From Pseudomonadales bacterium (GTDB lineage: Bacteria; Pseudomonadota; Gammaproteobacteria; Pseudomonadales; Azotimanducaceae), in assembly GCA_036526135.1 (NCBI GenBank), contig DATCZA010000011.1:17570-81569 (forward strand): DNA of 64,000 nt. The letters run 5' to 3'. The notes beneath the pieces are model-generated. The model ran no database searches and was not told the origin of the DNA. It saw nothing but the letters and a program-made list of their open reading frames with translations. This document shows, piece after piece, positions 13,688 to 43,661 of this stretch (the first letter of the stretch is position 1; each line of letters opens with the position of its first letter). The position numbers and the translations under genes were made by a program.

Positions 13688-13712
13688 TGAGCGCTCCACT
13701 GAACAAGAATTT

Positions 13713-13727: not shown

Positions 13728-13775
13728 TTAATCCCCAGGATCGCAATTATTTCGTGGCCATTTACCAAAATACTA

Positions 13776-13790
13776 TGTAGTTTTACTACA
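13776..13790. promoter_or_regulatory. HexR-type operator candidate (TGTAGT-TTT-ACTACA, perfect 6-3-6 inverted repeat)
   Basis: Perfect palindrome read directly from the sequence. Its last base is the A of the hexR ATG. Confidence 0.7.
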
Positions 13791-17004: not shown

Positions 17005-17065
17005 CCCGCGTCCTCGAAAATCTGAGACGTCTACACCCTTCAAACGCTGAATAGCGCAAGCTTAC

Positions 17066-17083: not shown

Positions 17084-17217
17084 GCGGCCTGCTTTGAGCG
17101 CTCAGTCACACACCGCGCGGCACGATTCGTCAAGACTTGCGCCGGAACAGGGACAAACGCGGGTGGACTGTGGAGACGCGAGAGGCATTCCACGCACCGC
17201 GTCATTAGGTGTTCGAG

Positions 17218-17748
17218 ATGCCAAAGACCCCAATAATCGCATTGCTGACTGCGCTGGCGTGCCTGTGCTGGTCGCCGGTTTCGGCCGACGACGTTTCCCG
17301 CAAGGAGATGCGCAGCCTCGACGAGCAGGTTCAGGAAATCAAATCCGACGTGCTGAGCATCGCCGCGGAACTCGACCAGCTCGAGGAGAGGCTGCTCTTT
17401 CCGTCCAACACCCAGCTGACCGTCTTCGTCGCCATCGGCGACGGGACGGAGTCTTTCCGGCTCGACTCGATCCGGCTCGGCATCAACGATGCGCTCGCCA
17501 CTCACCACATCTACAGCTTCAAGGAACTCGAGGCGCTGCAGCAGGGAGGCGTTCAGCGTCTCTACATGGGCAACCTGCCCATCGGCACTCACGCGCTGGA
17601 GGTTTCCGTGCTGGGCAAGCTGCCGAGCGGCAAGGACTTTGCCCACGCCGAGCGCTTCACCTTCGACAAGGGCATAGACCCGGCTCTGATCGGCATCACC
17701 GTTGACCCGGGCTCCGGCAAGGCCCCGATCGCCCTGAAAGACTGGTAG
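17218..17748 (+). CDS. Secreted protein with N-terminal coiled coil, function unknown (first gene of the Agl/Glt-like operon)
   Basis: MPKTPIIALLTALACLCWSPVSA signal peptide, then a heptad-like segment (MRSLDEQVQEIKSDVLSIAAELDQLEERL) and a beta-rich C-terminus. GTG 17209 is an alternative start. Confidence 0.7.
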   Translation: MPKTPIIALLTALACLCWSPVSADDVSRKEMRSLDEQVQEIKSDVLSIAAELDQLEERLLFPSNTQLTVFVAIGDGTESFRLDSIRLGINDALATHHIYSFKELEALQQGGVQRLYMGNLPIGTHALEVSVLGKLPSGKDFAHAERFTFDKGIDPALIGITVDPGSGKAPIALKDW

Positions 17749-23973: not shown

Positions 23974-24636
23974 ATGGATTTCGTGTACTCAATCGTTGAA
24001 TTCTTTGCCACTGGCGGTGCTTTCATGTACCCGATCCTGCTGGTCTTTGCGGTAGGCGCGGCGATCGCCATCGAGCGGTTCGTGACGCTGACCCGGGTGA
24101 CCACCAAGAACCAGACGGCATGGAGCGACATTCAGCCGGTGCTGTCCCAGGGTGACTTCGAGAGGGCACGCAAGATGACGGGCCAGGACCAGAGCCCCAT
24201 CTCGCGTCTGCTGTCCATGGGTCTGGCTCTTCAGGGTGCGGTGCGACGCCGAGAGGACGTCGAGATCGCCATGGAAGAGGGCATGATGGAAATCATTCCT
24301 CAGCTGGAAAAGCGCACGCCCTACGTCGCCCTAGCCGCGAGCATCGCAACGCTGCTCGGACTGCTGGGCACGATCATGGGCCTGATCCAGGCATTCACGG
24401 CAGTGGCCAACGCCAACCCGGCGGAGAAAGCCGACCTGCTGTCTGCCAGCATCTCGGTCGCCATGAACACGACGGCGTTCGGGCTGATGGTCGCCATCCC
24501 CCTGATGGTGGTGCACGCCTTCCTGTCGACCAAGACGAACGAGATCGTCGACGGCATGGAAATGGCGTCGGTCAAAGTGCTCACCGCCATCTCGATGCGC
24601 GCGCGTCGCGGCGAGGTAACCGCGAAAGCAGCCTGA
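23974..24636 (+). CDS. MotA/TolQ/ExbB family proton channel protein
   Basis: 220 aa with three TM segments and the ..LGLLGTIMGLIQAF.. / ..AMNTTAFGLMVAIPLMVVHAFL.. family signature. GGAGAGG RBS. Confidence 0.9.
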   Translation: MDFVYSIVEFFATGGAFMYPILLVFAVGAAIAIERFVTLTRVTTKNQTAWSDIQPVLSQGDFERARKMTGQDQSPISRLLSMGLALQGAVRRREDVEIAMEEGMMEIIPQLEKRTPYVALAASIATLLGLLGTIMGLIQAFTAVANANPAEKADLLSASISVAMNTTAFGLMVAIPLMVVHAFLSTKTNEIVDGMEMASVKVLTAISMRARRGEVTAKAA

Positions 24637-24677: not shown

Positions 24678-25199
24678 ATGGCCAGAACCCATCACTATCG
24701 GCGGCGCGTGACGGAGCCTACGGAGCTCGACGTGACCACCTTTCTCAACCTGATGGTCGTGCTGGTGCCGTTTCTGCTCATCACGGCGGTGTTCTCGAGG
24801 ATCACCATCGTAGAGCTGGATCTGCCCACCTCGGCCAGCTCGCCGTCGCCGAACGATCCGACCTTCCGGGTGGAGGTCATCGTGCGTGACAGCGGGCTGG
24901 AGATCACCAACGGGCGGATGGTCATTGCGGCCATACCCAAGGTGGAAGAGGAGTATGACCTTCAGACCCTTGGCGGGCACATGCTCGCGCTGAAGCACGA
25001 TCACCCTGACATCGACGAGGCCTCCGTTCTGCTGGAACCGGAAATTCCCTACGACTATCTGATTCAGGTGATGGACGTGGTGCGCAGCGCCGAGATCCAG
25101 CCGGAAGCTAGCGAAGGTAATGACGGTGACGGCGAAGTCGAGCAGCAGCCGACCCAGCTCGCGCTGTTCACCCAGATCGCCATTGGAGACGCGCCATGA
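24678..25199 (+). CDS. ExbD/TolR family protein, variant with Asn in place of the conserved TM Asp
   Basis: N-terminal TM region LDVTTFLNLMVVLVPFLL aligns with ExbD INVTPFIDVMLVLLIIFM. Asn occupies the Asp25 position. The periplasmic domain is ExbD-like. Confidence 0.85.
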   Translation: MARTHHYRRRVTEPTELDVTTFLNLMVVLVPFLLITAVFSRITIVELDLPTSASSPSPNDPTFRVEVIVRDSGLEITNGRMVIAAIPKVEEEYDLQTLGGHMLALKHDHPDIDEASVLLEPEIPYDYLIQVMDVVRSAEIQPEASEGNDGDGEVEQQPTQLALFTQIAIGDAP

Positions 25200-25708
25200 A
25201 GAGCTCCCGACGCATCAAGCGTATGGACAAGACGCGAAAGCGCTCCAAGTTCGTAACGAAGATGAACCTGACGTCGCTCATGGACGTCTTCACCATCCTG
25301 GTTTTCTTCCTGCTGGTGAACTCGGGCGCAGCCGACCCGCTGGAGTCTCCGAAAGACGTCAAGCTGCCGGAGTCGCGCGCCGAGTCCAAGCCCAAGGAGA
25401 CCGTGGTCATCTACATAAGCCCGGAAACCGTGGTGGTGCAGGGACAGCCCGTGGCCATGGTTGCCGACATTCTTGCAGCATCCGGCGAGGACGTCGTTGC
25501 TATCAGGGACAGGCTGGCGGCCATCAAGGGCCAGATCATCGGTCCGAACACGCAGCAGGTAGCGGGCAGCCAGGAAGTGACGATCATGGCCGACAAGTCC
25601 ATTCCGTTCAGCGTGGTGAAACGAATCATGTCCACCTGCACCAGCGAGGGATACGGGAACATCTCTCTCGCCGTCGTGCAGAAGGACGCCCAGGTCGCGG
25701 CCATCTGA
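25196..25708 (+). CDS. ExbD/TolR family protein (canonical TM Asp present)
   Basis: MNLTSLMDVFTILVFFLLV retains the Asp. There is an ATGA overlap with the previous gene. Confidence 0.88.
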   Translation: MKSSRRIKRMDKTRKRSKFVTKMNLTSLMDVFTILVFFLLVNSGAADPLESPKDVKLPESRAESKPKETVVIYISPETVVVQGQPVAMVADILAASGEDVVAIRDRLAAIKGQIIGPNTQQVAGSQEVTIMADKSIPFSVVKRIMSTCTSEGYGNISLAVVQKDAQVAAI

Positions 25709-27181: not shown

Positions 27182-27508
27182 CCGGCGAGCGCCCGCTCAG
27201 CGCGGGCCCGCCAGCAGCGCGCGGCAATCCAGCAGTCGTATGACTTGTGACGAATGCCGCATGGCGCAGGTGGACTCTGCTCCGGCTTCGACACGCGGGC
27301 TTGGAGACACGCTCAGGGGTGTGAAGGCGATCACCACGGGCGCAGCCCTGGTCGGCAATAGTGCGGTTTCGGGACAGCGCACCGCTAAGCGGTGCGGCAA
27401 CGAACGTAAGCCAGCGTGAGGCTCGCGACGGTGAGGCTTTCAAGGTCGAAGCGCACGGCAACGTGCGGGAAAGATACCTGCAGCCAAACCAAGCGGTGTC
27501 GTGGAGAG

Positions 27509-30500
27509 ATGTCGGCAAGTTCGAAACAAAACGTGAAGCGCAAGCTCGCTCTTGCGGTGATGAGCACCCTCGCCATGTGGGTGCTCGCCGCTGCACCGGC
27601 GTGGGCGGAGAAGTGCTCTGATTACGTCGATGGGATAATCGACGGAAACGCCGTCCCGGCCCCCGGACAGCTCACCGTGGACCGTGACTGCTACATTTCC
27701 AACTACGACCCCCTCGACACCAACATCACCTTCATTCACAACCTGGGCAGCTTCCTGGTCGTGTTCGACAACGTCCGCTTCCGCGGCAACATGTCGTGCG
27801 ACGACGTGGGCGACATTCACAAAGTCTGGTTCTCCGACTCGTCCTCCTACCCCGGCCGGCTGCCCAAATGCTATCGCCTGTGGGAACCCGTGGACGCGGT
27901 CGTCAAAGAGAACCCGCCAGGCCAGACGTTCGTCGTCATCGGCGTTCCGTTCACCTACACCCTGACCATGCCCGTCATGCCGGACGGAGGCCCGGACGTC
28001 CAGGATCTCTACGACCTTCGGATCGTCGACGACCTCACCGCGGGCGGCGCCGACCTGCGGCTGGTCGGCTTCACGAGCTCCATACCTGGTCTGGTGAACA
28101 CGGGCACGGATACGAACCTGGTTCTGGAACACCCTCGCGTGCCCGCCGGGGCGCAGCTGGTGGTCGAGCTCACCGTGGTCGCGGGGGACACGCCGCGCAA
28201 CGCGCCCGGAACCACCTTCACCAACTTCGCTGACTGGACCTTCTACAAGGATCTGCGAAGCGACGGCAGCCCCGTCTTTCTGCCCGGCGACTCGAGCGAG
28301 ACGCCGCCGCTGACCATCGCCGGCCCCGAGCTCACGTTGACGAAGACGGGCCCCGCCACGCTCAACCTGGGCACGTCGGGCGAGTTCACCCTGGACATCC
28401 AGAACGTCGGCAACAGCGACGCCTGGCAGGTGAACGTCGTTGACCTGCTGCCCGACGGCGCCAGCGGCGGCATGTGCGCATCGTCCCCCACGGTGACGAG
28501 CGCGCGGGTATTCGGCCCCAACGGCAACTCGCGGGTCCAGGGCAAAGGCTGGCTGGTGGAGGGCGTCGACTACTTCGTCTCGTTCACCGGCTCCCCGCGC
28601 TGCCAGTTCACCTTCGAGACCCTCTCGCCGGCCGGCGTCATCGCCCCGGACGAGCGCCTGATCATCACCTACGAAGCCGAGCTCGACCCGGACACTCAGG
28701 ACGGCGCGGTGCTCACCAACGTGGCGGGCACCCCCTCCTGGTACGACTCCGACGGCAGCGTTTCAGACCGGCACCTCTACACCGGCTCCCTGACCAACGG
28801 GACCGTCGGCGTGCTTGACAGCGAGGACGCCCACACGCTGACGGCCGAGCTTTCCGGCATCTTCTTCGAGAAGACGGTAGCCAACCTCAGCACCGGCGCG
28901 AACCCTACGGCCACGGCGGCCCCTGGCGATCGGCTGCGCTACACCCTGCGCGTGCAGACGACGGACAGCGCCCTCAACGCGTTCTCCATCGGAGACGACC
29001 TGGGCGCGCTGAACGCCAACGCCGTCTTCGAGCCCGGCTCGCTGGCTCTGGTGGCCAGCTCGATTCCTGCCGGGGCAAGCACCACGAACACCAATCCCAA
29101 CGGCGGGACCAACGGCACCGGGCTGGTCGACGTCAGAAGCCTGAGCCTCGCCGCCGGCAGCGAGCTGACCATTCAGTACGACGTCACCCTGGCGGACGCG
29201 CTGCTCGACGGCTCCGTGGTGTCCAACCAGGCCATACTTTCCGGCGGGTCACTTCAGGTCGACAGCGACGATCCCAACGTGAACGGCCAGTCGGACCCCG
29301 ACGTCTCCGGCGACGAGGATCCCACCCGCGTGCTCATCGAGGTCGCGCCGCCCGCCGCCCTGGTGAAATCGACGACCCAGCCCACCGTGAGCATCGGCGA
29401 GACGTTCACGTACCGGATCACCGTTCCGTCCGCACCCCATGGCACGCCGCTCTTCGACGTCCGGATCACCGACAACCTGGCAGCCGTTGCTGCCGACGTG
29501 GACTACGTGGACGTTTCCCGCGTCTCCGGCCCCGGATCCTGGACCCCGGTAAACACCGGTTCCGGAAACACCCTGGTGATCGAGGATACCGGCGCCGGCA
29601 TCGACATCCCGGCCGGTGAGCAGGTGGTGATCGACATTACCCTCAGATTGACGGACAGCGCTACCAACGTCGCCGGCCTGACGTTCGGCAACACGGCGGC
29701 CTACACGTACAACCAGCTCAACGGCGATGCGAGCAGCGAGCTCGACGGGCTTTCAGGCACCAGCGCGGACATGACCATCGTCGAGCCGCAGCTGACGGTG
29801 ACCAAGACCGGACCGGGGCTGATGCGCGTCGGGCCGCCCGCAACCTTCACCCTGGACGTTCAGAACACCGGCGGAGGCCGTGCGCATTCCGTCGAGCTCA
29901 CCGACGCCCTGCCGAACACCGCCGAGGGCGGCATGTGCGACGCAGCACCCGCAGCCTTCACCGCCCAGATATTTCAGGCAGACGGCGCCACCCCGGTGGG
30001 CCCGGCTCTCGCCCAGGGCGCGGATTTCAGCGTGAGCTTCTCCGGCGCGCCAGCGTGCACGTTCAACGTGGACCTGCTCAGCGCCGCAGCCACCATCGGT
30101 CCCGGTGAGCGGCTGATCATGACCTACCAGGCGCTCCTGGACGCTGACAGCCTGGACGACATCACCCTGACCAACGTGGCGGGCGCCACGGCCTGGTTCA
30201 GCGCGGCCACCAGCCAGGCCCGCGGCTACGCGCCCGAGCTGACCGACGGCTCGGCGGGGATCCTCGACCACGAGGACGAGCACACGATTCTTACCTTCTC
30301 TCCCCTGCTCTCCTTCGAGAAGACGGTCATCAACGTCACCACGGGGGAAAGCCCGGCGATGACGGCCAGCCCCGGAGATCGGCTGAGCTACAGCCTGCGC
30401 GTGATCAATCTGGGTCCGGAACCGCTGGACGATTTCAGCGTCGTCGACGAGCTGGACCGGCTGAACCGGAACCCGGCGTTTCAGCCGGGCACCCTGCAGC

Positions 30501-33500
30501 TCACGGTCGTGCCTGACGGGGCAACGACCGGGGGCACCAGCGCCAGCGGGGGCGCTGCGGGAACGGGATACCTGGAGGTGTCCGGACTGAGCCTTGCCGG
30601 GTCCGGGGGCACCATCGACATCGGCTTCGAGGTCGAGCTCGCGCCCGTGCTCGCCAATGCCAGCCTGGTGAGGAACCAGTCGCAGATCATCGCTCAGGGA
30701 TTCGTCGTCCAGGACAGCGACGACCCGAACAAGAACGACGTGGCAGACCCGGTGATCGTCGGGGACGAGGATCCCACCGAGGTGCAGGTGGAGTCCGCAC
30801 CCGCCTTCGACGTCGACAAGACCTCGACCTACCTGGACGGCGACCCCAACGTGCTGATGGCCGGCGAAACGCTGCGCTACACCATCACCGTGCAGAACGT
30901 CGGTGACGACAACGCGACCAACGCGGTGCTGCGCGATCAGATTCCTGCAAACACCGCCTACGTGGCGGGCAGCACCACGCTGAACGGCGCGTCCGTGGCG
31001 GACGTGGGCGGAACGACGCCCCTGGCCGCCGGCATGACCATCAGCTCGCCTGCCGACAGCGCAGCGGGCGCCATGACGGCGATCGCATCCGGCAGCCGGA
31101 GCAACGTAGCCGTCATCGAGTTCGACGTGGTGGTGGACGCGTCCGCCGTCGACGGCACCGTGCTCACCAACCAGGCCTTCCTTACCGCCACCGCCGGGAT
31201 CATCGACCAGCCCTCCGACGATCCGGACACACCGGTCGCGGACGACCCCACCCGGGACGTGGTCGGCAACCTGCCGCTCATCTACGCGGAGAAATCGGCG
31301 ACGCTGCAAACCGACGGCGGATCTCGCGGCGTCATCGATCCCGGTGACGTGCTCCGCTACACCATCAGCATCTACAACAACGGCTCGGCGGACGCGACGG
31401 ATGCAACGCTCACCGACGCGGTGCCGGTCAACACAACCTACGTGGCCAACACCGTCACGCTGAACGGCCAGCCCGTCGGTCGACCCGATGGGGGCTCGTT
31501 CCCGCTGGCCGGCGGCCTGCCCGTCAGCTCAGCCGACGTGAACCCACCGGTGCCAGGCCCCGGCGCCGGAACGATTACCGCCGGCGAGGTCGCCGTGGTG
31601 CAGTTCGACCTTCGCGTGGACGACGACCTCCCCACGGGGACGCTCATCTCCAACCAGGCCGTCGTGTCTACCGCGGAGGTCGTCGATCAGCTCACGGACG
31701 GCGACGGTGATCCCGCTACGGGGCCCGAGCCCACCGTGGTCGTCGTCGGTCCCGCGCAGCAGCTCAGCATCACCAAGCAGGCGGCCGTGGTGGGAGGCGG
31801 CGCGGCGCTGGCGGGTTCCACGCTCGAATATCTGGTCCGCGTTCGCAACGTGGGCCCGGTGCCCGCGATCGGCGTCAGCCTCGTCGACGACCTGGACTAC
31901 CCCACGGCGAACCAGCTCCAGATGGTGCCCGGCTCGGCAACCGTCAACGGGCAGTCCGTGGCCGCGACCGGCTCGGTGCTGGACATCGCCTTCGGCGACC
32001 TGGACGTGGACGGGACCATCACCCTGCGATTCCAGGCGACGCTCAGCGCAGGGCTAGACGCCGGCACCCGGGTGACCAACCGCGCCGTGGCAACCTGGAA
32101 CGTGAATCAGCAGGTCGAGGCCAGCGTGGCCGTGGACGTCGGCGGCATCGTCGGCGTCGGGGTCCTCAACGGTAGCGTCTGGCACGATGCGAGCTACGAC
32201 GATCAGCTCGACAGCAACGAGCGCGTGCTGGCCGGATGGACCGTGGAGCTGATGCGCAACGGTCAGGTCGTGCACACTACCCAGACCGGCACCGACGGCA
32301 CGTACCGGATCACGGGCCTCGGGCCCAACGCCGCATCCGGCGACAGCCTGTCCCTGACGTTCACCGCGCCCGGCGCGGGGCCCGGCACGGCCCTGCTGGG
32401 TCAGGCCAGCTCGGCAAGCTTCACCAACGGCCTGCAGCGCATCGACGACATCGTCGTGCAGTCCGGCAACAACCTGATGAACCTGGACCTCCCCATCGAT
32501 CCCAACGGGGTGGTTTACGACTCCGTGTCGCGCACCCCCGTTTCCGGCGCGACCCTGACACTGGTGGACGACGTCACCCGCGCGCCGCTGCCGGCCACCT
32601 GCTTCGACGACACGGCCCAGCAGAACCAGGTTACCCGTGCGGACGGCTACTACAAATTCGATCTGAATTTCTCGGACGGCGCCTGCGGCAGCGGCGCGAG
32701 CTACACCATCGAAGTGGCCGCACCCGGCAGCGCGTACACCACGGGCTACTCGGTGCTCATCCCGCCAACGGACCTGAACGCGCCGACGCCGTTCAGCGTG
32801 CCCGGTTGCCCGGGCTCCCTCGACGACGCGGTCCCCGCCACGGGCGAGCACTGCGAGGCTGGACCATCCGAATTCGCACCGCCCACCTCGGTGCAGGCCC
32901 AGAGCTCGGGCACCGCGTACCGGGTGACCGGGCTTGTGTTCGACACCAGGCGCCTACCCGGCTCGGCGCAGATCTTCAACAACCACATACCGCTCGATCC
33001 GATACTCGACGGCGCCGTGGCGATCAGCAAGACCACGCCCATGGTGAACGTCAACCGGGGCCAGCTCGTGCCCTACACCATCACGGTGACCAACACCTTC
33101 GGCGTTTCTCTGCAGGACGTGGCGGTGATCGACCGCTTCCCTCCCGGCTTCCGCTACGTGGAGGGCTCGGCGCGCCTGGACGGGGTGCCGGTGGAGCCGG
33201 CGATGGGCGAGCGCGATCTCGCCTGGGGCGGCCTCACCCTCGCTCCGGACAGCCAGCGCAGCATCAAGATGCTGCTCGGAGTCAGCGCGGGTGTCAGCGA
33301 AGGCGAGTTCGTCAACCGCGCCCAGGCCATCAATACGGTGGGCCAGATCAATCTTTCCGGCGAAGCCACCGCTACCGTGCGGGTGGTGCCCGATCCCACC
33401 TTCGACTGCACGGACGTCACCGGCAAGGTTTACGACGACGGGAACCGCAACGGCCGTCAGGACCTTGACGAGTTCGGCCTGCAGGGCGTTCGCCTGCTCA

Positions 33501-34033
33501 CCCCCCAGGGCCTGGTCGCCACGACGGACGAGCACGGTCGGTTCCACATCACGTGCGCCACCGTGCCGCGCGACGACCGCGGCAGCAACTTCGCGCTGAA
33601 GCTGGACGACCGGACCCTGCCAAGCGGTTTCCGCGCCTCCACCGACCGGGTGCAGATCAAGCGCGCCACCCGGGGTAAGGCCCTTCACTTCGAGTTCGGC
33701 GCTTCGATTCACCGTGTGGTGGGTCTGGAGATCGCCGACGGCGTGTTCTTCCCGGAAAGCAGCGAGATCCGTCCTCAGTGGAAGCACCGCTTCGAGCTCC
33801 TGCTCGAGGAGCTCACCAAGTCGCCCTCGGTGCTGCGGCTGACCTACCTGGCCGACGTCGAGGATCCGAAGCTGGTCAAGCAGCGCCTGCGCGTGGTGAA
33901 GAAGCAGATCGTGCGCAGCTGGCGGGAGCTCGACTGCTGCTACCGGCTCGAGCTCGAGGACGACGTGTTCTGGCGGCTGGGCGCGCCCGCGGGCAAGGCC
34001 GTGAATCGACGGGTGGATGGCGGCGATGAGTAA
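27509..34033 (+). CDS. Giant (2174-aa) secreted DUF11 / SdrD-B-like repeat surface protein (adhesin-like)
   Basis: ATG 27509 follows GGAGAG. Signal peptide MSASSKQNVKRKLALAVMSTLAMWVLAAAPAWA. Multiple TIGR01451/DUF11-type repeats (e.g. LTLTKTGPATLNLGTSGEFTLDIQNVGNSDA.., VDKTSTYLDGDPNVLMAGETLRYTITVQNVGDDNATN.., ISKTTPMVNVNRGQLVPYTITVTNTFG..). Recurring DSDDPN..GDEDPT linkers. Two SdrD-B/Cna-B-like units (GSVWHDASYDDQLDSNERVLAGWTVEL..TDGTYRITGL; GKVYDDGNRNGRQDLDEFGLQGVRLL..DEHGRFHI). Confidence 0.88.
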   Translation: MSASSKQNVKRKLALAVMSTLAMWVLAAAPAWAEKCSDYVDGIIDGNAVPAPGQLTVDRDCYISNYDPLDTNITFIHNLGSFLVVFDNVRFRGNMSCDDVGDIHKVWFSDSSSYPGRLPKCYRLWEPVDAVVKENPPGQTFVVIGVPFTYTLTMPVMPDGGPDVQDLYDLRIVDDLTAGGADLRLVGFTSSIPGLVNTGTDTNLVLEHPRVPAGAQLVVELTVVAGDTPRNAPGTTFTNFADWTFYKDLRSDGSPVFLPGDSSETPPLTIAGPELTLTKTGPATLNLGTSGEFTLDIQNVGNSDAWQVNVVDLLPDGASGGMCASSPTVTSARVFGPNGNSRVQGKGWLVEGVDYFVSFTGSPRCQFTFETLSPAGVIAPDERLIITYEAELDPDTQDGAVLTNVAGTPSWYDSDGSVSDRHLYTGSLTNGTVGVLDSEDAHTLTAELSGIFFEKTVANLSTGANPTATAAPGDRLRYTLRVQTTDSALNAFSIGDDLGALNANAVFEPGSLALVASSIPAGASTTNTNPNGGTNGTGLVDVRSLSLAAGSELTIQYDVTLADALLDGSVVSNQAILSGGSLQVDSDDPNVNGQSDPDVSGDEDPTRVLIEVAPPAALVKSTTQPTVSIGETFTYRITVPSAPHGTPLFDVRITDNLAAVAADVDYVDVSRVSGPGSWTPVNTGSGNTLVIEDTGAGIDIPAGEQVVIDITLRLTDSATNVAGLTFGNTAAYTYNQLNGDASSELDGLSGTSADMTIVEPQLTVTKTGPGLMRVGPPATFTLDVQNTGGGRAHSVELTDALPNTAEGGMCDAAPAAFTAQIFQADGATPVGPALAQGADFSVSFSGAPACTFNVDLLSAAATIGPGERLIMTYQALLDADSLDDITLTNVAGATAWFSAATSQARGYAPELTDGSAGILDHEDEHTILTFSPLLSFEKTVINVTTGESPAMTASPGDRLSYSLRVINLGPEPLDDFSVVDELDRLNRNPAFQPGTLQLTVVPDGATTGGTSASGGAAGTGYLEVSGLSLAGSGGTIDIGFEVELAPVLANASLVRNQSQIIAQGFVVQDSDDPNKNDVADPVIVGDEDPTEVQVESAPAFDVDKTSTYLDGDPNVLMAGETLRYTITVQNVGDDNATNAVLRDQIPANTAYVAGSTTLNGASVADVGGTTPLAAGMTISSPADSAAGAMTAIASGSRSNVAVIEFDVVVDASAVDGTVLTNQAFLTATAGIIDQPSDDPDTPVADDPTRDVVGNLPLIYAEKSATLQTDGGSRGVIDPGDVLRYTISIYNNGSADATDATLTDAVPVNTTYVANTVTLNGQPVGRPDGGSFPLAGGLPVSSADVNPPVPGPGAGTITAGEVAVVQFDLRVDDDLPTGTLISNQAVVSTAEVVDQLTDGDGDPATGPEPTVVVVGPAQQLSITKQAAVVGGGAALAGSTLEYLVRVRNVGPVPAIGVSLVDDLDYPTANQLQMVPGSATVNGQSVAATGSVLDIAFGDLDVDGTITLRFQATLSAGLDAGTRVTNRAVATWNVNQQVEASVAVDVGGIVGVGVLNGSVWHDASYDDQLDSNERVLAGWTVELMRNGQVVHTTQTGTDGTYRITGLGPNAASGDSLSLTFTAPGAGPGTALLGQASSASFTNGLQRIDDIVVQSGNNLMNLDLPIDPNGVVYDSVSRTPVSGATLTLVDDVTRAPLPATCFDDTAQQNQVTRADGYYKFDLNFSDGACGSGASYTIEVAAPGSAYTTGYSVLIPPTDLNAPTPFSVPGCPGSLDDAVPATGEHCEAGPSEFAPPTSVQAQSSGTAYRVTGLVFDTRRLPGSAQIFNNHIPLDPILDGAVAISKTTPMVNVNRGQLVPYTITVTNTFGVSLQDVAVIDRFPPGFRYVEGSARLDGVPVEPAMGERDLAWGGLTLAPDSQRSIKMLLGVSAGVSEGEFVNRAQAINTVGQINLSGEATATVRVVPDPTFDCTDVTGKVYDDGNRNGRQDLDEFGLQGVRLLTPQGLVATTDEHGRFHITCATVPRDDRGSNFALKLDDRTLPSGFRASTDRVQIKRATRGKALHFEFGASIHRVVGLEIADGVFFPESSEIRPQWKHRFELLLEELTKSPSVLRLTYLADVEDPKLVKQRLRVVKKQIVRSWRELDCCYRLELEDDVFWRLGAPAGKAVNRRVDGGDE

Positions 34034-37000
34034 GCAGTACCCAATCATCCCGATGTGGCTCGCCCGTTGGCTGGCGTGCGCCGTGGCCATCCTCTGCGCG
34101 CCCGCGGCGGCCGAGAAGGTGCAGGAAACCACCGCGACCCACGCAGCCGAGCGGCATCTCTCCAGCGACCAGACGTTCACCCAGTGGGCTTTCGATCCGG
34201 ACCGACTGGCCCAGGCCGACGGGGACCGGGTCGAGAAGATCGCGGTTGCAACCGTCGAGCCGCGCACCGTCAAGCTCAAAGACGTCGTCCGCCCGATTTA
34301 TTTCGACTCCGGCGTCGCGGAGATTCCGGCCAGCACCGTCGCCGAGCTGCGCCATGTGCTGGAAAGCATGCGCGAGCGGCGCAACGTACGGCTGAATCTG
34401 GTGGGCCACGCGGACAGCGAGTCGCTTTCCCCGGAGCTCGAGGACGTCTACGGCGACAACTTCGGGCTGTCCCGGGAGCGAGCGGGCCAGGTTGCCGACT
34501 ATCTGCAGGCGGTGCTCGCGCTGCCCGCCGAGGCGCTGTCCATCGAGTGGGCCGGCGACACCCGGCCCGTGGCCTCCAACGACACCGAAGCAGGCCGCGC
34601 GCTCAACCGCCGCGTGGAGGTCGAGGTGTGGTACGACGAGCTCGACGACGGCACTGCCATCGAAGAGAGAGTGGTCATCGACGAGATCGAGCGCGTGAAG
34701 GTGTGTCGCGTCGAAACGGTGTGCAAGCTCCGCTATCTCGATGGACACGACCGACGCGCCCGGGTGCTGAACCTGATCACGCCGCTGCACTACGGCGAGG
34801 AAGGCGTGGAGGTCACCGACGAGTTCACAGCCCAGGTGCAACGCACCATGGCGAGCCTGGGCGACCGCCAGAACGTCACGGTGAAGTTCATCGGCTACAC
34901 GGACAACCAGACGCTGGCAGGCCGCACGGCGAGAATCTACGGGACCCACGAAGTGCTCTCCAAAGCGCGCGCACGACGGGTGGCGCTGGCCATCCAGGAT
35001 CGCCTGGGCCTGGAGACGGCGGCCGTGGCGAGCAACGGGCTCGGCGCATCCAGGCCGCTGGCGTCCAACGAGACCACAGACGGGCGCGCCCTGAACCGGC
35101 GGGTGGAGGTCGAGTTCTGGTACGACGATCCGCTGCAGGATCTGCCAGACGAGCCCCAGCTGTGTCCGGGCGAGCCGGGCGCAGAGACGGTGACGCGGGT
35201 ATACGATCCGCCCTGGGGCGGCATCGGCAATCTCGAGCTCGAAGGCGGCCGTCCCGTCGTGCCCGCCGGCTACACCCAGGCCCTGGCCCGCGCCCTCGGC
35301 GACGTGGCCGACAAGCGCAACCCCCGCCTGCGCATCCTCGGCTACACGCGCAACGAGCGCCTGGACCGCCGCACCGCCTCGGTGTACGGCGACGACATCG
35401 GCCTGTCCGCTGCCAGAGCGCGACGGGCCATGGAAACGCTTTCAGCGGAGATGGGCCTGGCTCCAGAGCAGGCCGAGTTCGAAGGCCGCGGCTACGTGCA
35501 CTCGGCAGACGTGGTCAACGCCGGGTTCGTCCAGGACGAACGCTCCTACGTTGCCGTCCAGGTCGTCTACGACGATCTCGCCGTGGTCGACGACACCGAG
35601 GGAGTGGAGGTCACGCCGCTCACCCGGGAGCTGGAAACGAAGAACCCCTATGCGCTCAATCTCATGCGTATCACCGTGGACGGCGAGCCCATCGACGACC
35701 CGAACCGAAGCTCCGCCGACGTCCAGCGCTGCACGGACGTTGCCATGAAAGGCGCCGACATCCGCTTCGGCTTCGACAACTTAAGCTCGAAGCCGCGGCT
35801 GAGCGTGTCCGCCAGCACCGCGATCCTGGGGGTCACGGAAGCTGCCGAAGATTCCCTCTCCGCCAGCGGGCTGCAGTTCAGCATGTACGCGAACTACTCC
35901 CACTTCATCGACCGCTCGGAGATCCGCATCTTCGACCGGGACGCCTCCACCCAGACCGAGCCCATGGCCGTGATCGCCGTGGGTCCGGACGGCCAGGCGA
36001 CCTGGGAGCCCGTGTTGGATTCGTTTGCCGGCCCGGTGCGGGAGCTGAAGTACCTGCTGCGCGCCTACGATGCGCAGGACCGCTTCGACGAGACCACCAC
36101 GCAGCCCTTGTGGCTGGTGCGTGAGACCGGCAGCGCGGCGGCTGCCGAAGGCCCGGTCGCAGAGGCAGAGGAAGGCGAGCCCACCGACCCGCTCCAGCCG
36201 GAGTTGCTCTCCGGCTACGGCGAGAACGCTCTCGCCATGCACAACATCCGTCTTTCGAGCGGCACGGTTCGGGTCAGCGGCAGCGAGGTTCCCGAAGGCC
36301 ACCGCGTTTACGTCGCGGGTCGGGAAGTGCCCGTGGACGCCAAAGGCAACTTCGTCAGCGAGGAAATCCTGCCGGAGGGCGCCCACACCGTGGAGGTGGC
36401 CGTTCTCGACGATCAGGGCAGCGGGGAGTCCTATCTGCGGGATCTGGCGTTCGAGCCCAGCGACTGGTTCTACGTGGGCATGGCGGATCTGACGTTCTCC
36501 CACAACGAGACCAACGGCCCCATGGAACTGCTCATGGGGGACGATGCACCGTACGACTACGACTCGTCCGCCGACGGCCGGCTGGCCTTCTTCGTCAGCG
36601 GGAAGTTCGGCAACAAGTGGCGCCTCACGGCCAGCGCCGACACCCGTGAGGATTCCCTGGACAAGCTCTTCACGAACTTCCTGAGCAAGACGCCCGACTC
36701 CCTCTTCCGCCGCATGGAGCCGGACGATCACTATCCCACCTTCGGGGACGACGGCACGGTAGAGGAGCTCGCCCCGACCCTCGGCAAGTTCTACGTGAAG
36801 CTCAGCCAGCGCGAGAACCACGTCATGTGGGGCAATTTCAAGGTCGGCTACATGGACAACGAGCTCGCGCAGATCGACCGGGGGCTGTACGGCGCGAACT
36901 TCCACTACCAGGCCGCCGACACCACCAGCTTCGGCGAGCAGAAGTTCAGCGTGGATGCTTTCGCCGCCGAGCCCGGCACGGTGGCGAGCCGCCAGGAGTT

Positions 37001-39155
37001 CCGCGGCACCGGCGGGTCCCTCTACTTCCTGCGCCATCAGGATCTGATGGTGGGCTCCGAGCGGGTTCGGGTCGAGGTGCGGGACCGATCCTCCGGGCTC
37101 GTCACCGGCGTGGTGAACCTCAACCCCGGCTCCGACTACGACGTCGACTACCTCCAGGGCAGCATCATGCTGGCCGAGCCCCTGGCTTCCACGGTGGGCG
37201 ACGACCTGCTCGTGCGCAGCGGCGCGCTGGGCGGCGACGAGGCCTATCTGGTGGTTCGCTACGAGTACACGCCCGGCTTCGACGAGATCGACGCCCTGTC
37301 CGTGGGCGGCCAGATGCACTACTGGATCAACGACCACATCAAGGTGGGGCTCACCGCAAACGCCAACGAGGAAGGCGGCACGGACAGCGGGCTGCACGGT
37401 GCCGACCTCACCCTGCGCAAGAGCGCGGACTCCTGGGTCAAGCTGCAGGTGTCGCAGAGCGAGGGGCTCGTCACCGACACCCTGCGCTCGAGCGACGGCG
37501 GCTTCGAGTTCGCCGGCTACGACCCCTCGTCGTTCTCCGATGCCAGCGCCGGCGGCTACCGGGCCGACGTGAGCGTTGGCCTCGACGACTTCTCGTCCCG
37601 CCTGGACGGCCGAATCACCCTGTACGCCCAGGATCTGGATGCCGGCTACTCCGGCCCCGGTCTGACCACCGTTGGCGGCGCCCGCAACTTCGGCGGCACC
37701 TTCACCATGCCCGTGACGCGCAAGCTGGAAGTCAGCGCCAAGAGCGATCTGAGAAAGCAGCGTCAGGGCGTGGAGACGACGGCCCACGAGCTCGACCTGG
37801 TATACGACCTGACGCAGCGATGGGACATCAGCGCCGGCGTGCGACACGACGAGCTCACCGACCGCTCTCCCGTGGTGGCGCCCACCCAGGATCAGGGCCA
37901 GCGCATCGACGCCGTGATGCAGGTGGGCTACGACTCCCTCGGCCGCTGGAAGGCCTACGGTTTCGTTCAGGATACGGTTTCCTCTGACGGCGACAGGCCA
38001 GACAACGCACGCCTAGGCCTCGGCGGCCAGGTGCGCGTCACGGAGAAGATGACCATCGACTCCGAGTTTTCCACCGGCGATCTCGGCACGGGCGGAAAGC
38101 TCGGCACGACGTACATGCATTCGGAGCGGACCAGCCTTTACCTGAACTACGCCATGGACAACGAGCGAACCGAGCCCATGCTGCGCGCGCCCCGGGGCAG
38201 CGAGGGCAACCTGGTTTCAGGGATCAAGACGCGGCTGTCCGACGCCACGAGCGTGTACGTGGAGAGCCGCTACCGGCACGGCGATACGGCCAACGGCCTC
38301 ACCTACGCCTCCGGCGTGAACTTCACCGCGTCCAACAGCTTCAACATCGGCGCGAACACGGACATCGGCACGCTGAAGGATCTGTCCACGGGAGCGGAGA
38401 CCGACCGCAAGGCCGCCGGCGTCCGGGTCGCTTTCGGCACCGAGCGCCTGCAGCTCTCCAGCGGCATCGAGTACCGGAGCGACGACACCGAGCAGCTGGA
38501 CGACACCACCTCCAACCGCAAGACCTGGCTGTTCAGGAACACGCTGAAGTACCAGCTGAACGAAAGCTCCCGTCTCGTGGGCAAGCTGAACCACGCCGAC
38601 AGCACGAGCTCGCTGGGCAACTTCTTCGCCGGCGGCTACACCGAGGCCGTGTTCGGCTATGCGTACCGACCGGTGCGTCACGACAGGCTCAACACGCTGA
38701 TGAAGTACACGTACTTCTACAACGTCCCGACCACGGATCAGGTCTCGCTCACCCAGACCGCGGCGGACTTCGTCCAGAAGAGCCACATCGCGTCCGTGGA
38801 CGTCACCTACGATCTCACCTCACGCTGGTCCATCGGCGGCAAGTACGCATACCGCCTCGGCGAGATCAGCTACGATCGGGAAAACCCCGAGTTCTTCAGC
38901 AACACCGCCAGCCTCTACGTGGTCCGGCTGGACTGGGAGTTCCGCGAGAACTGGGAAATCATGGCCGAGACGCGCCTGCTGGACATGGCCGATTTTCAAG
39001 AGCAGCGCCAGGGCTATCTCGTTGCCGTCTCGCGCAACTTCGGCGATCACTTCAAGGTCGGCGCCGGCTACAACTTCACGGACTTCTCGTCCGACCTGAC
39101 GGATCTGAGCTTCGATCATCAGGGCATGTTCCTCAACCTCACCGGCGCGTTCTAG
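34026..39155 (+). CDS. Outer-membrane protein with three OmpA-like peptidoglycan-binding domains and a large C-terminal beta-barrel
   Basis: Signal peptide MSKQYPIIPMWLARWLACAVAILCAPAAA. Three OmpA_C-like modules, two with the NRRVEVE motif (..LVGHADSE..GLSRERAGQVADYL..NRRVEVEVWY; ..FIGYTDNQ..SKARARRVALAI..NRRVEVEFWY) and a third without it (..ILGYTRNE..SAARARRAMETL..). The distal ~600 aa have alternating beta-strand character and end ..MFLNLTGAF (terminal Phe beta-signal). The start overlaps the stop of the giant gene (ATG 34026 or 34017 versus TAA 34031-34033). Confidence 0.85.
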   Translation: MSKQYPIIPMWLARWLACAVAILCAPAAAEKVQETTATHAAERHLSSDQTFTQWAFDPDRLAQADGDRVEKIAVATVEPRTVKLKDVVRPIYFDSGVAEIPASTVAELRHVLESMRERRNVRLNLVGHADSESLSPELEDVYGDNFGLSRERAGQVADYLQAVLALPAEALSIEWAGDTRPVASNDTEAGRALNRRVEVEVWYDELDDGTAIEERVVIDEIERVKVCRVETVCKLRYLDGHDRRARVLNLITPLHYGEEGVEVTDEFTAQVQRTMASLGDRQNVTVKFIGYTDNQTLAGRTARIYGTHEVLSKARARRVALAIQDRLGLETAAVASNGLGASRPLASNETTDGRALNRRVEVEFWYDDPLQDLPDEPQLCPGEPGAETVTRVYDPPWGGIGNLELEGGRPVVPAGYTQALARALGDVADKRNPRLRILGYTRNERLDRRTASVYGDDIGLSAARARRAMETLSAEMGLAPEQAEFEGRGYVHSADVVNAGFVQDERSYVAVQVVYDDLAVVDDTEGVEVTPLTRELETKNPYALNLMRITVDGEPIDDPNRSSADVQRCTDVAMKGADIRFGFDNLSSKPRLSVSASTAILGVTEAAEDSLSASGLQFSMYANYSHFIDRSEIRIFDRDASTQTEPMAVIAVGPDGQATWEPVLDSFAGPVRELKYLLRAYDAQDRFDETTTQPLWLVRETGSAAAAEGPVAEAEEGEPTDPLQPELLSGYGENALAMHNIRLSSGTVRVSGSEVPEGHRVYVAGREVPVDAKGNFVSEEILPEGAHTVEVAVLDDQGSGESYLRDLAFEPSDWFYVGMADLTFSHNETNGPMELLMGDDAPYDYDSSADGRLAFFVSGKFGNKWRLTASADTREDSLDKLFTNFLSKTPDSLFRRMEPDDHYPTFGDDGTVEELAPTLGKFYVKLSQRENHVMWGNFKVGYMDNELAQIDRGLYGANFHYQAADTTSFGEQKFSVDAFAAEPGTVASRQEFRGTGGSLYFLRHQDLMVGSERVRVEVRDRSSGLVTGVVNLNPGSDYDVDYLQGSIMLAEPLASTVGDDLLVRSGALGGDEAYLVVRYEYTPGFDEIDALSVGGQMHYWINDHIKVGLTANANEEGGTDSGLHGADLTLRKSADSWVKLQVSQSEGLVTDTLRSSDGGFEFAGYDPSSFSDASAGGYRADVSVGLDDFSSRLDGRITLYAQDLDAGYSGPGLTTVGGARNFGGTFTMPVTRKLEVSAKSDLRKQRQGVETTAHELDLVYDLTQRWDISAGVRHDELTDRSPVVAPTQDQGQRIDAVMQVGYDSLGRWKAYGFVQDTVSSDGDRPDNARLGLGGQVRVTEKMTIDSEFSTGDLGTGGKLGTTYMHSERTSLYLNYAMDNERTEPMLRAPRGSEGNLVSGIKTRLSDATSVYVESRYRHGDTANGLTYASGVNFTASNSFNIGANTDIGTLKDLSTGAETDRKAAGVRVAFGTERLQLSSGIEYRSDDTEQLDDTTSNRKTWLFRNTLKYQLNESSRLVGKLNHADSTSSLGNFFAGGYTEAVFGYAYRPVRHDRLNTLMKYTYFYNVPTTDQVSLTQTAADFVQKSHIASVDVTYDLTSRWSIGGKYAYRLGEISYDRENPEFFSNTASLYVVRLDWEFRENWEIMAETRLLDMADFQEQRQGYLVAVSRNFGDHFKVGAGYNFTDFSSDLTDLSFDHQGMFLNLTGAF

Positions 39156-39558: not shown

Positions 39559-40401
39559 ATGGAAACCGAGCTGCTCAGAACTTTCCTGGAAGTCAATCGC
39601 ACCCGCCACTTCGCTCGCGCCGCCAGCAACCTGCACCTGACTCAGGCGGCCGTGAGCGCGCGGGTGCGCCATCTCGAGGAAATCGTCGGCGAGCGGCTGT
39701 TCACCCGCACCAGAAACAACATCCAGCTGACCGTCGCCGGGCACCGGCTGCTCGGACATGCCGAGGCGATCGTCGGGTCCTGGAACCGGGCCCTCCTCGA
39801 AACCGGCGCCCCGGCGAGCACGCGGGCGCTGGTGGCGCTGGGTTGTCTGCCCAGCATCTGGGAAACGTATCTGACCGACTGGCTGAGCCGCACCTACGAG
39901 GACCTGTCGCCGATCTTGTTGCAGATCGAACTGCTCAACACCGAGGCGCTCGTCAGGCGCCTGCGGGAGAACTCCATCACCATCGGGCTTCTCTACGAAC
40001 CGCCCCAAGCGGACGATCTGATTGCCGAGCAGGTCACCGAGGTCAGCGTAAGGCTGGTCTCGTCCAGCCAGGGGCTCAGCGTCTCGGACTCTCTGCCCGG
40101 TTACGTTTACGTCGACTGGGGAACGTCTTTCGCCATCGCGCACGATACGCGCCTGGGGATTTCAACCCCGCCCGCGCTGCGGGTCGACACGCCGGCTATC
40201 GCCTACCGCTTTCTCACCGAGCACGGCGGAACGGCGTATCTGCCGTCGGCCATGGTCGCCGGTGCCCTGTCCGCAGGGCTGCTGTTTCCCGTCGCAGGAG
40301 GGAAGACGTTCACGAGGGCCGCGTTCATCGCGAGGAGCGCGACCGCCAGCGCGGTCGATTCGATCAAGGCCGTGACGGCGAGCCTGCGAGCGCTGGTGTA
40401 G
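39559..40401 (+). CDS. LysR family transcriptional regulator, HdfR-like
   Basis: METELLRTFLEVNRTRHFARAASNLHLTQAAVSARVRHLEEIVGERLFTRTRNNIQLTVAG closely parallels the HdfR N-terminus ([40 protein letters not shown].., from memory). Start trimmed to ATG 39559. Confidence 0.85.
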   Translation: METELLRTFLEVNRTRHFARAASNLHLTQAAVSARVRHLEEIVGERLFTRTRNNIQLTVAGHRLLGHAEAIVGSWNRALLETGAPASTRALVALGCLPSIWETYLTDWLSRTYEDLSPILLQIELLNTEALVRRLRENSITIGLLYEPPQADDLIAEQVTEVSVRLVSSSQGLSVSDSLPGYVYVDWGTSFAIAHDTRLGISTPPALRVDTPAIAYRFLTEHGGTAYLPSAMVAGALSAGLLFPVAGGKTFTRAAFIARSATASAVDSIKAVTASLRALV

Positions 40402-42688: not shown

Positions 42689-42913
42689 CGCCGGCTCGCG
42701 GCGGTCCGCCTGCCGGTTGTCGTCGGCATTGATCGGACCTCTTGGCGGCAGCGCCCAGCAATCGCCCGAGGCGCACTCTGAGCGCACGCGCCGCGAACCC
42801 ATGAGATTCCGGCATGGCCTGCTCGTAAAGCGTTCTCAGGCCGGCTTCGAGTTTCGAACGATCTTTCACGGGCGCCTATTTGTCCACGGCTCCATAGACA
42901 TTAGACTGCGCGC

Positions 42914-43471: not shown

Positions 43472-43661
43472 TTTTCATCGCCTGCTGTGACTTTTTCGAC
43501 TGGCCGCGAGTCTGATCTGAAGATTTTTTGCACGGCCGGATCCGATCGATGATTACCCGTGAGGAGTCCCTCCTCATAGCACAGGAACTGCGCAACCGAC
43601 AGGCGGCGGCGAAGTGCGGGCGCTCGGTTGCCGGCCGCAACCGGCAACCGAGGAAAACCGC

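Follow-up and report, generated by a model that had tools for sequence, protein, structure and literature searches.

A giant CLIPPER repeat protein and its three-OmpA barrel partner are genetically linked to a Glt-like motor core and may form its outer-membrane output module

INTRODUCTION

What does a Glt-type motor core act upon at the outer membrane? The question is raised by a 64,000-nucleotide stretch of a Pseudomonadales bacterium (assembly GCA_036526135.1, contig DATCZA010000011.1, positions 17,570 to 81,569; the window hereafter), in which nine genes resembling the Agl-Glt core of Myxococcus xanthus are followed directly by a gene for a giant repeat protein (the giant) and a gene for a barrel protein with three OmpA-like modules (the partner). 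The original prediction took the giant as candidate cargo of the motor and the partner as its outer-membrane platform. Conservation of the Glt core in many non-gliding Proteobacteria has been known since the 2011 account, and the core is taken as the ancestor of the motors of myxobacterial gliding and spore-coat formation. That account described a core conserved in gammaproteobacteria, probably a complex "of unknown function," with one extra gene absent from Myxococcus, and mentioned neither a giant repeat protein nor an OmpA barrel (Luciano 2011, PMC3169522). In the literature we found no description of the pair, its link to the Glt core, the neighbors of the Geobacter or Saccharophagus cores, a riboswitch together with DUF11, or the barrel family.

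RESULTS

The giant and its partner adjoin the motor core in several phyla

We scanned one genome per GTDB species with a barrel profile and found at least 580 relatives, the best 80 of which (at least 51% identity) were taken with 10-kb flanks and probed by tblastn with the window's proteins. An alignment of 36 broadly chosen sequences (A2) proved too diverged to serve in this locus scan, which succeeded with one of 9 sequences (A3). The 80 loci came from Woeseiaceae, Steroidobacteraceae (among them Povalibacter uvarum DSM 26723), Lysobacter niastensis, Alkalilimnicola ehrlichii, Microbulbifer agarilyticus, and Thiohalomonas, as well as from Acidobacteriota, Desulfuromonadales, Myxococcota, Nitrospirota, and others. 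Core genes adjoined the pair in 50 of the 50 informative loci, and none of the 80 showed both sides without a core; in the other 30, which include those of A. ehrlichii (L074) and M. agarilyticus (L082), the core could not be scored, the upstream side being hidden by the giant gene or a contig end. The core preceded the pair in 39 loci (Gammaproteobacteria and Acidobacteriota) and followed it in 11 (Desulfuromonadales, "delta," Nitrospirota, and one alphaproteobacterial metagenome-assembled genome). Since the linkage survives this permutation of blocks, it points to function rather than inertia. We rejected chance adjacency of the pair and the core on these counts. Both sets of genes are also present in cultured strains, namely P. 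uvarum DSM 26723 (locus L078) and L. niastensis (L062).

A reverse scan of metagenomes was anchored on the GltG-like protein and gave at least 509 matches; among the best 80 (at least 42% identity), 54 carried at least 1 kb of downstream sequence. A detectable giant homologue lay directly 3′ of gltG in 44 of these 54 loci, a long signal-peptide-bearing frame with divergent DUF11-like repeats in eight, and something else in two. Within the clade sampled, the co-occurrence with the motor that the original prediction implied was therefore seen from both anchors (50/50 from the barrel, 44 plus 8 of 54 from gltG).

This co-occurrence is a property of the OmpA-bearing subfamily and does not extend to the whole family of pairs. 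Two OmpA-less pairs (loci L083 and L084) and the fused protein P0298 (L002) had no core within 10 kb. OmpA-like modules were found in the motor-linked partners examined, and none were found in the motor-less relatives P0275, P0279, and P0298. Because distant OmpA-less pairs lack a core within 10 kb, the generic pair appears to be autonomous and the OmpA-bearing subfamily motor-linked; because the family exists without OmpA modules and motor, export and anchoring are probably motor-independent. That the OmpA modules track the motor would agree with a requirement for some fixed point of reaction.

The upstream genes match a described core complex

The genes upstream of the pair (Table 1) have the identical order of, and nearly equal sizes to, GM21_0438 to GM21_0445 of Geobacter sp. 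M21, which are given in Table S3 of Luciano 2011 as gltC (GM21_0438, 626 aa, homologue of MXAN_2541), gltD (GM21_0439, 1090 aa), gltE (GM21_0440, 272 aa), an unlisted gene (GM21_0441), ExbB/aglR (GM21_0442), two ExbD genes (GM21_0443 and GM21_0444), and gltG (GM21_0445, 505 aa) (PMC3169522). The GltE-like protein corresponds to GM21_0440 and Gura_3075. The 113-aa secreted protein occupies the slot of the core's additional gene without a Myxococcus homologue, and the 176-aa gene is kept directly 5′ of the gltC-like gene in 12 plus 22 loci at 44 to 71% identity. One TolQ/ExbB-like and two TolR/ExbD-like genes are present, with gltC-, gltD-, and gltE-like TPR genes clustered with the motor. Judged from gene order and sizes, the upstream nine genes match the core complex gltC-gltD-gltE-X-aglR-aglQ-aglS-gltG of Luciano 2011. 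We rejected an alternative open reading frame (ORF) at 17094-17705, an Arg-rich shadow frame despite tblastn matches; the real gene is the one at 17218-17748.

In the GltG-like protein, a coiled-coil N terminus is followed by a single transmembrane helix, then by a linker rich in Pro and Lys, and last by a TonB-like domain at the C terminus. Its C terminus matched the AgmX/PglI model NF033768 at 57.4 bits (cut-off 40) and TonB_C weakly, and the motif RTDEEIQIVFD...YPIDFLP is conserved. The full-length GltG equivalog scored 32.8 bits, far short of its cut-off of 650, and the protein showed no FHA domain. With one ExbB, two ExbD, an AgmX/PglI TonB-like protein, and three TPR proteins, the operon is Glt-like as originally proposed.

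The giant and its partner form one conserved unit

An exhaustive profile search with the non-OmpA part of the partner returned 3331 clusters at 50% identity, and a barrel module of about 1150 aa was C-terminal in many proteins of 2100 to 6900 aa. In all 71 genome loci whose sequence could be read, the C-terminal region of the giant lay directly 5′ of the barrel gene. A CLIPPER/SdrD_B giant stood immediately 5′ of the partner in each of the split relatives inspected, near or remote, mostly with an abutting or overlapping stop and start; the overlap was 4 nt in 39 of about 70 loci, and the delta and Nitrospirota group had gaps of 4 to 250 nt. In the window, the partner starts inside the last codons of the giant, as had been noted before, the frame opened by ATG 34026 sharing 8 nt, stop codon included, with the end of the giant gene. 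The sequence GGTGGA stands 8 nt 5′ of this ATG, and the 1709-aa NCBI/GenBank call for the identical protein corresponds to this start.

The two genes are a single ORF in loci L040 (Acidobacteriota; 3099 aa), L075, and L081 (both Myxococcota). The junctions lack the hydrophobic signal peptide of the partner, which argues for real fusions rather than assembly errors. Further fused proteins of 2134 to 6889 aa were P0242, P0243, P0254, and P0298. P0242 has the order DUF11, SdrD_B, OmpA, and barrel module; the 4674-aa P0298 has CARDB, 7 CLIPPER and 16 SdrD_B stretches followed by a homologue of the giant's C-terminal region and the barrel module, without OmpA. The two proteins are an obligate pair, being one polypeptide in several lineages, and these arrangements confirm a predicted action of the giant and the partner as one unit. 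In the natural fusions the C-terminal domain of the giant, which we call the dock domain, is joined directly to the N terminus of the partner, about 30 aa from the OmpA modules. Because these modules are of the peptidoglycan-binding type, the C-terminal end of the giant is probably periplasmic.

At locus L088, a CLIPPER giant exceeding 4068 aa is succeeded by a distant partner homologue (44% identity, weak OmpA match), and a gene for a 148-aa TonB_C protein (L088:14343-14789) lies directly 3′ of the latter. In this lineage, where no full core was in view, the small protein may act as a minimal transducer.

The giant is a predicted fibrillar adhesin with conserved ends

The giant begins with a signal peptide and a domain of about 270 aa, continues as a stalk of CLIPPER/DUF11 and SdrD_B units, and closes with a conserved C-terminal module. 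Its N terminus, MSASSKQNVKRKLALAVMSTLAMWVLAAAPAWA-EK, was judged by eye to be a Sec signal peptide. Pfam, in which DUF11 has been renamed CLIPPER, matched PF01345 at 153 bits over six stretches, together with DUF7507/CLIPPER_2 and SdrD_B; in NCBIfam, TIGR01451 scored 210.7 bits over eight stretches and TIGR04226, an isopeptide domain, 94.5 bits. CLIPPER domains are the stalks of Gram-negative fibrillar adhesins, with an isopeptide bond in one solved example (PMC12617251). Having a signal peptide and tandem CLIPPER domains, the giant is by its domain content a protein of the CLIPPER/DUF11 fibrillar-adhesin type. Consistent with this, Foldseek matched it to Gram-positive pilins and to the CLIPPER structure 9ifr (template modeling [TM] score of 0.72 on the target).

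The first approximately 270 mature residues and the last approximately 120 residues had no family match. Identity across loci was 34 to 46% in the N-terminal part and 53 to 68% in the C-terminal 300 aa, and the last 420 aa were conserved to the same degree as the partner. Ortholog giants range from about 980 to more than 4000 aa, i.e., the stalk varies about four-fold in length with the tip and the C-terminal module kept. The dock domain, a β-α-β-α-β fold modeled by AlphaFold2, was also recognizable in distant OmpA-less pairs (29 to 34% identity) and had no match in Pfam or among PDB sequences. Its topology is compatible with an OmpA-like domain, but hhalign against the OmpA modules of the partner gave nonsignificant E values of 0.17 to 0.5, and we rejected this assignment.

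Neither the giant nor the partner matched RTX, autotransporter, POTRA/two-partner secretion (TPS), sortase, or type IX secretion system (T9SS) C-terminal domain families at an E value of ≤0.01, in agreement with the original prediction. We accordingly rejected the giant as an RTX adhesin of type I secretion, a T9SS cargo, or a sortase substrate; it lacks these families, and its C terminus is a folded β-α-β-α-β domain.

A longer or alternative variant of the giant appears to exist, as judged from some of the predicted proteins. The gene after gltG at L118:5430-9821 starts with another conserved N-terminal region (CP.NL...HDF.VSFCELC..GTVR), which over more than 1400 aa matched nothing in Pfam and was also seen after gltG in L092, L099, L112, L151, L157, L159, and L169. 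In L095, L141, and L146, about 5.3 to 5.8 kb precede the part resembling the giant of the window.

The partner combines OmpA-like modules with a very large predicted barrel

The partner opens with a signal peptide and a conserved "ERHL" segment; its three OmpA-like modules come next, then a pair of Ig-like sandwiches and a barrel, and the protein ends in the terminal Phe of ...FLNLTGAF. It is more than 60% identical over 1700 aa in more than 120 clusters, and its C-terminal 1192 aa are more than 51% identical across several phyla. PF00691 matched it at 91.8 bits (cut-off 27.2) over two stretches. The third module was missed by Pfam, even at an E value of ≤10, and was found homologous to modules 1 and 2 by profile-profile comparison (hhalign E values of 5e-18 and 8e-22). 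In a profile search of PDB sequences, which returned OmpA-like domains only, the closest solved relatives were the flagellar stator domains of PomB, MotB, and MotS. The modules are, by homology, members of the OmpA-like peptidoglycan-binding family, with binding itself predicted.

The region of about 1190 aa after the OmpA modules had no significant family match. We modeled residues 521 to 1712 with AlphaFold2 from 53 homologues. The Ig-like sandwiches correspond to model residues 63 to 182 (predicted local distance difference test score [pLDDT] of 66 to 89) and 229 to 289, and this region matched Glucodextran_B weakly. After them come some 39 long β-strands in antiparallel arrangement, with a pLDDT of 70 to 89 in many blocks; the mean pLDDT of the model was 56.8 and its predicted TM score (pTM) 0.41, making the strand count tentative. 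The barrel matched DUF2490 weakly, and Foldseek returned generic large barrels only (SprA, TonB-dependent transporters, LptD, SlpA, and MtrB; TM score of ≤0.21 on the query). The barrel, the Ig region, and the C-terminal domain of the giant belong to no described family.

Thus, what the original prediction had read from the two genes stood up well, i.e., a 2174-aa Sec-signal DUF11/SdrD-B repeat protein (ORF plus Pfam and NCBIfam), three OmpA-like modules (two by Pfam and the third by hhalign), and a large barrel ending in LNLTGAF (sequence plus AlphaFold2, about 39 strands at moderate confidence).

The pair has its own predicted promoter and, in most relatives, a c-di-GMP riboswitch

The spacer between gltG and the giant is 327 nt long and contains no intrinsic terminator on the + strand. 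It carries a CRP/FNR-family-type palindrome, TGTGA-N6-TCAC, which is the sole copy in the window (0.27 expected), followed by a −10-like hexamer that reads CATAGT or GATAGT in relatives. The palindrome and (C/G)ATAGT occurred at equal spacing in 57 of 111 related loci. The layout is that of a predicted class II promoter dependent on the CRP/FNR family (CRP/Vfr/Clp type).

In relatives, a cyclic di-GMP (c-di-GMP) type I riboswitch begins a few bases 3′ of the −10-like hexamer. Rfam RF01051 scored 71 to 79 bits (gathering score 35) in the 5′ leaders of the giant genes of five relatives (Table 1), and a model built from 40 canonical copies (R1) matched 32 of the 39 genome loci showing the gltG-giant junction (about 80%), plus 49 metagenome loci, in about 46 of which the copy precedes the giant gene. 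RNAalifold found no structure when the leaders were aligned as a mixture; the motif was clear after canonical copies had been collected. Control by c-di-GMP-I riboswitches is typical for adhesion and biofilm genes. These leaders show the expression of the pair in the relatives to be under predicted control of c-di-GMP, the second messenger governing attachment. Three metagenome loci have a second copy just 5′ of the first core gene (L110:1473-1570, L140:1343-1441, and L131:1031-1129), and the motor operon itself may be under c-di-GMP control there. At L158:3873-4406, an inserted 178-aa ORF, which on visual inspection looks like a transposase, separates gltG from the riboswitch/giant leader.

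No riboswitch was found in the window by Rfam (E value of ≤1) or at the leader by the purpose-built model with filters off, and the leader (27363-27508) is not unusually structured (z = −1.07). L091 to L093, the nearest relatives of the window, likewise had no R1 match, so that the leader of the window either lost a riboswitch or never had one. Elsewhere in the window, a weak R1-type match at 11117-11205 (+; 15.4 bits, rough E value of 0.009) is probably noise.

The own promoter, with the riboswitch in relatives, indicates that the pair is a separately controlled transcription unit. As to adjacency, the proposed position of the pair directly behind the motor stands, but the pair cannot be read as just the end of that operon.

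Other genes of the window

The PtsP-like, ECF sigma, and Cpn60 genes that follow the pair (Table 1) were not conserved beside it in other loci; an extracytoplasmic function (ECF) sigma gene was also seen 3′ of the fused 6889-aa relative in L090. Directly 5′ of the cluster are two tandem glyceraldehyde-3-phosphate dehydrogenase (GAPDH) genes (14987-16003 and approximately 16003-17004), the second of which is overlain by an Arg-rich shadow frame (15930-17054) that we rejected as a gene. Further upstream is a 748-aa glucose-6-phosphate dehydrogenase (G6PD) ORF (12224-14473, − strand), whose G6PD domains begin at residue 274; it has either an N-terminal extension or a mis-set start.

Table 1. Features of the motor core, the giant, the partner, and their surroundings (window positions unless a locus is named)
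Feature	Position	Strand	Basis or remark
Core gene 1, secreted 176-aa protein without family	17218..17748	+	Signal-peptide-like N terminus
GltC-like TPR protein, 626 aa	17751..19631	+	Weak TPR matches, none at Pfam cut-off
GltD-like TPR protein, 1061 aa	19628..22813	+	Multiple TPR families
GltE-like TPR protein, 234 aa	22794..23498	+	TPR_2, TPR_16, others
Small secreted protein, 113 aa	23495..23836	+	Signal-peptide-like N terminus; position conserved across loci
AglR-like proton channel, MotA/TolQ/ExbB family	23974..24636	+	PF01618, 95.9 bits
AglQ/S-like ExbD/TolR protein	24678..25199	+	PF02472, 47.3 bits
Second AglQ/S-like ExbD/TolR protein	25196..25708	+	PF02472, 59.1 bits
GltG-like TonB/TolA-type force transducer, 483 aa	25730..27181	+	NF033768
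CRP/FNR-family-type palindrome TGTGA-N6-TCAC, TGTGAAGGCGATCAC	27320..27334	+	Centered about 41 nt 5′ of the inferred transcription start (near 27369)
−10-like hexamer AATAGT	27357..27362	+	21 to 22 nt after the palindrome
Giant fibrillar repeat protein, 2174 aa	27509..34033	+	ATG 27509, TAA 34031-34033
Giant C-terminal β-α-β-α-β dock domain	33710..33988	+	AlphaFold2, pLDDT about 90
Partner, 1709 aa	34026..39155	+	Alternative in-frame ATG 34017
OmpA-like peptidoglycan-binding module 1	34269..34640	+	PF00691
OmpA-like module 2	34764..35129	+	PF00691, second stretch; hhalign against module 1, E 4.9e-40
OmpA-like module 3, divergent, without NRRVEVE tail	35190..35576	+	hhalign
Two Ig-like β-sandwich domains	35763..36443	+	Between OmpA modules and barrel
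Predicted outer-membrane β-barrel, about 36 to 40 strands	36465..39146	+	AlphaFold2
GAF-domain phosphoenolpyruvate-utilizing enzyme, PtsP/EI-Ntr-like	40364-42802	−	
ECF sigma factor	42914-43471	+	
Cpn60/GroEL-family chaperonin	43614-45242	+	
c-di-GMP-I riboswitch	L100:4694-4781		RF01051
c-di-GMP-I riboswitch	L036:5084-5171		RF01051
c-di-GMP-I riboswitch	L078:4227-4319		RF01051
c-di-GMP-I riboswitch	L001:4718-4806		RF01051
c-di-GMP-I riboswitch	L062:777-866		RF01051

DISCUSSION

We propose that the pair is a surface fiber, exported and anchored by the barrel, which provides the ancestral Glt motor with its output module at the outer membrane; to this composite reading we give a probability of roughly 0.55. 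The two genes would encode one envelope device. The giant would be exported by Sec, and its stalk and N-terminal tip would be passed through, and held by, the very large outer-membrane barrel of the partner; its C-terminal dock domain would stay in the periplasm, docked on the N-terminal region of the partner and, in some lineages, covalently joined to it. The three OmpA-like modules would fix the assembly to peptidoglycan and act as a fixed point. The core, comprising an ExbB/ExbD-type proton motor, the TonB-like GltG, the TPR proteins GltC, GltD, and GltE, and two small secreted proteins, would deliver force derived from the proton motive force to the device in order to tension, retract, unmask, or gate the fiber. 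Expression of the pair would be set apart from that of the motor by the CRP-type site and, in most relatives, the c-di-GMP-I riboswitch.

Within this proposal, surface exposure, passage through the barrel, mechanical coupling to GltG, and the role of cargo are what we infer. The stalk and tip are placed outside the cell because of the pilin-like and CLIPPER domains, the approximately four-fold length variation with conserved ends, and the over-long fused relatives. With no further export genes conserved, the barrel is a candidate for both conduit and socket. Since motor-less pairs exist, the motor more likely actuates or gates the fiber than exports it.

Several points weigh against this proposal. 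Neither a TonB box nor a direct contact site for GltG was identified. The linkage counts cover the closest relatives only (the best 80 of at least 580 for the barrel and the best 80 of at least 509 for GltG), and the giant fills the fetched flank in the 30 genome loci where the core was not scorable. The existence of motor-less relatives means that pairs of this kind can complete their basic biogenesis without a motor. Roughly 500 aa of periplasmic OmpA modules separate the "passenger" from the barrel in the fusions, a layout unlike any known autotransporter topology and one that a wholly periplasmic giant fits equally well. The low global confidence of the barrel model (pTM of 0.41) also leaves its strand number, lumen, and plug uncertain.

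The layout of the fusions bears on where the giant resides. If it stayed in the periplasm as a peptidoglycan-associated fiber or strut linking the TPR scaffold to the barrel, the barrel would be a pore or platform for something else. The contiguity of the giant's C terminus with periplasmic OmpA modules in the fusions and the lack of a recognized outer-membrane translocation signal are in line with such a strut, as is the Glt periplasmic complex of Myxococcus, which is predicted to lie parallel to the outer membrane (PMC11761067). However, the periplasm has a fixed width and could hardly accommodate a stalk varying about four-fold in length, and the fused relatives of 4674 to 6889 aa are far too long for it; surface fibers are typically built of CLIPPER, SdrD_B, and pilin-like domains, and riboswitch control is typical of adhesins. 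We regard a periplasmic giant as quite improbable for these reasons.

Whether the motor acts mechanically on the pair is a separate matter. The pair could be a self-sufficient, autotransporter-like adhesin, co-located with the motor through a shared c-di-GMP program or a general envelope task. OmpA-less pairs and fused giants without a motor within 10 kb suggest as much, the pair owns its promoter and leader, and the second riboswitch 5′ of the core in three loci suggests co-regulation rather than one transcript. On the other hand, the linkage held in 50 of 50 informative loci in several phyla despite the permuted gene order, OmpA-like modules were confined to motor-linked partners among those examined, and the very high cross-phylum conservation of both sets suggests their transfer as one block; we therefore consider an adhesin free of mechanical action unlikely. 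We find it very improbable that the barrel is an energy-dependent importer, i.e., a very large analogue of a TonB-dependent transporter gated by GltG, with the giant as a line capturing polymers or particles. A TonB-like transducer and an ExbB/ExbD motor do adjoin a large barrel, and TonB-dependent transporters were among the generic Foldseek matches, but the family searches gave neither a plug nor a TonB-dependent receptor, the surroundings of the cluster show no conservation of catabolic or uptake genes, and motor-less relatives exist.

These results give the Glt core a concrete conserved partner, a predicted giant fiber with a predicted peptidoglycan-tethered barrel, together with a candidate cargo and, through the pair linked to it, a regulatory input by c-di-GMP. 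The large barrel family paired with or fused to CLIPPER/SdrD_B giants may be an unrecognized display route for very large adhesins of diderm bacteria. More tentatively, and with the odds against it as we see them, the pair might be the original output module of Agl/Glt, a "motorised autotransporter" representing a new class of energized surface-fiber machines with an isopeptide-locked fiber. The gliding and Nfs spore-coat machines of myxobacteria would then have evolved later by swapping the outer-membrane module.

Several known systems resemble parts of the proposed surface-fiber device. As in type V secretion (Va and Vb), a Sec-dependent repeat "passenger" is N-terminal to, or encoded directly 5′ of, a barrel, fused and split versions exist, and the motor-less relatives need no other secretion genes. 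In contrast, the predicted barrel is about three times larger than the 12 to 16 strands of type V, periplasmic OmpA modules and Ig domains stand between passenger and barrel, and the C terminus of the passenger would be periplasmic. We rejected a type Va autotransporter, there being no PF03797 match and the barrel of about 39 predicted strands being on a separate protein, and two-partner secretion (Vb), for which Pfam gave no TPS, POTRA, or Omp85 families. The T9SS/SprB gliding machinery of Flavobacterium (GldLM, SprA, and SprB) likewise combines a proton-driven motor, a very large barrel, and a giant repetitive adhesin. SprA was the top Foldseek match of the partner, but at a TM score of 0.19; there is neither a T9SS C-terminal domain nor any Gld/Por gene here, and the motor is of the Tol/Exb/Agl type.

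With TonB-ExbBD and Tol-Pal the cluster shares an ExbB/ExbD motor and a TonB/TolA-like transducer acting on an outer-membrane partner, with OmpA-like modules as in Pal. It differs in having no plug domain or recognized TonB box, three extra TPR proteins, and another barrel family. A TonB-dependent transporter was rejected, since neither the plug (PF07715) nor the barrel (PF00593) was matched, even at an E value of ≤10 on sub-segments, and Foldseek TM scores were ≤0.31 on the target. The outer-membrane exchange pair TraA/TraB of Myxococcus is encoded in an operon and comprises a large surface receptor and an OmpA-domain β-barrel partner. The TraB model of NCBIfam matched only the OmpA part of our partner and, at 61 bits, stayed below its cut-off of 700; the domains come in the opposite order, and PA14 and MYXO-CTERM features are absent here. 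The CLIPPER adhesin B9T28_05395 of Acinetobacter silvestris, which has a C-terminal OmpA-like anchor (PMC12617251), shares with the giant a signal peptide, a non-repeat N-terminal domain, and a CLIPPER stalk, and CLIPPER adhesins resemble it further in their predicted isopeptide domains and cell-wall-directed anchor at the C-terminal end. Here, in contrast, the OmpA modules belong to a second protein, which is translationally coupled to the giant and also has a huge barrel.

The Agl-Glt machinery of M. xanthus remains the closest point of reference. Pfam found none of its platform families (vWA, OmpA_membrane, and autotransporter) in the giant or the partner, and NCBIfam gave OmpA-like models only on the partner. 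One three-OmpA barrel protein of about 1700 aa stands in place of GltA/B/H/K, a giant CLIPPER fiber in place of the vWA lipoprotein CglB, and GltF, GltI, and GltJ are outside the conserved cluster. A peptidoglycan-fixed barrel could not travel as a focal adhesion does. The core genes are common to both, and so would be the logic of a motor driven by proton motive force, a TonB-like transducer, a TPR scaffold, a barrel platform, and an adhesin.

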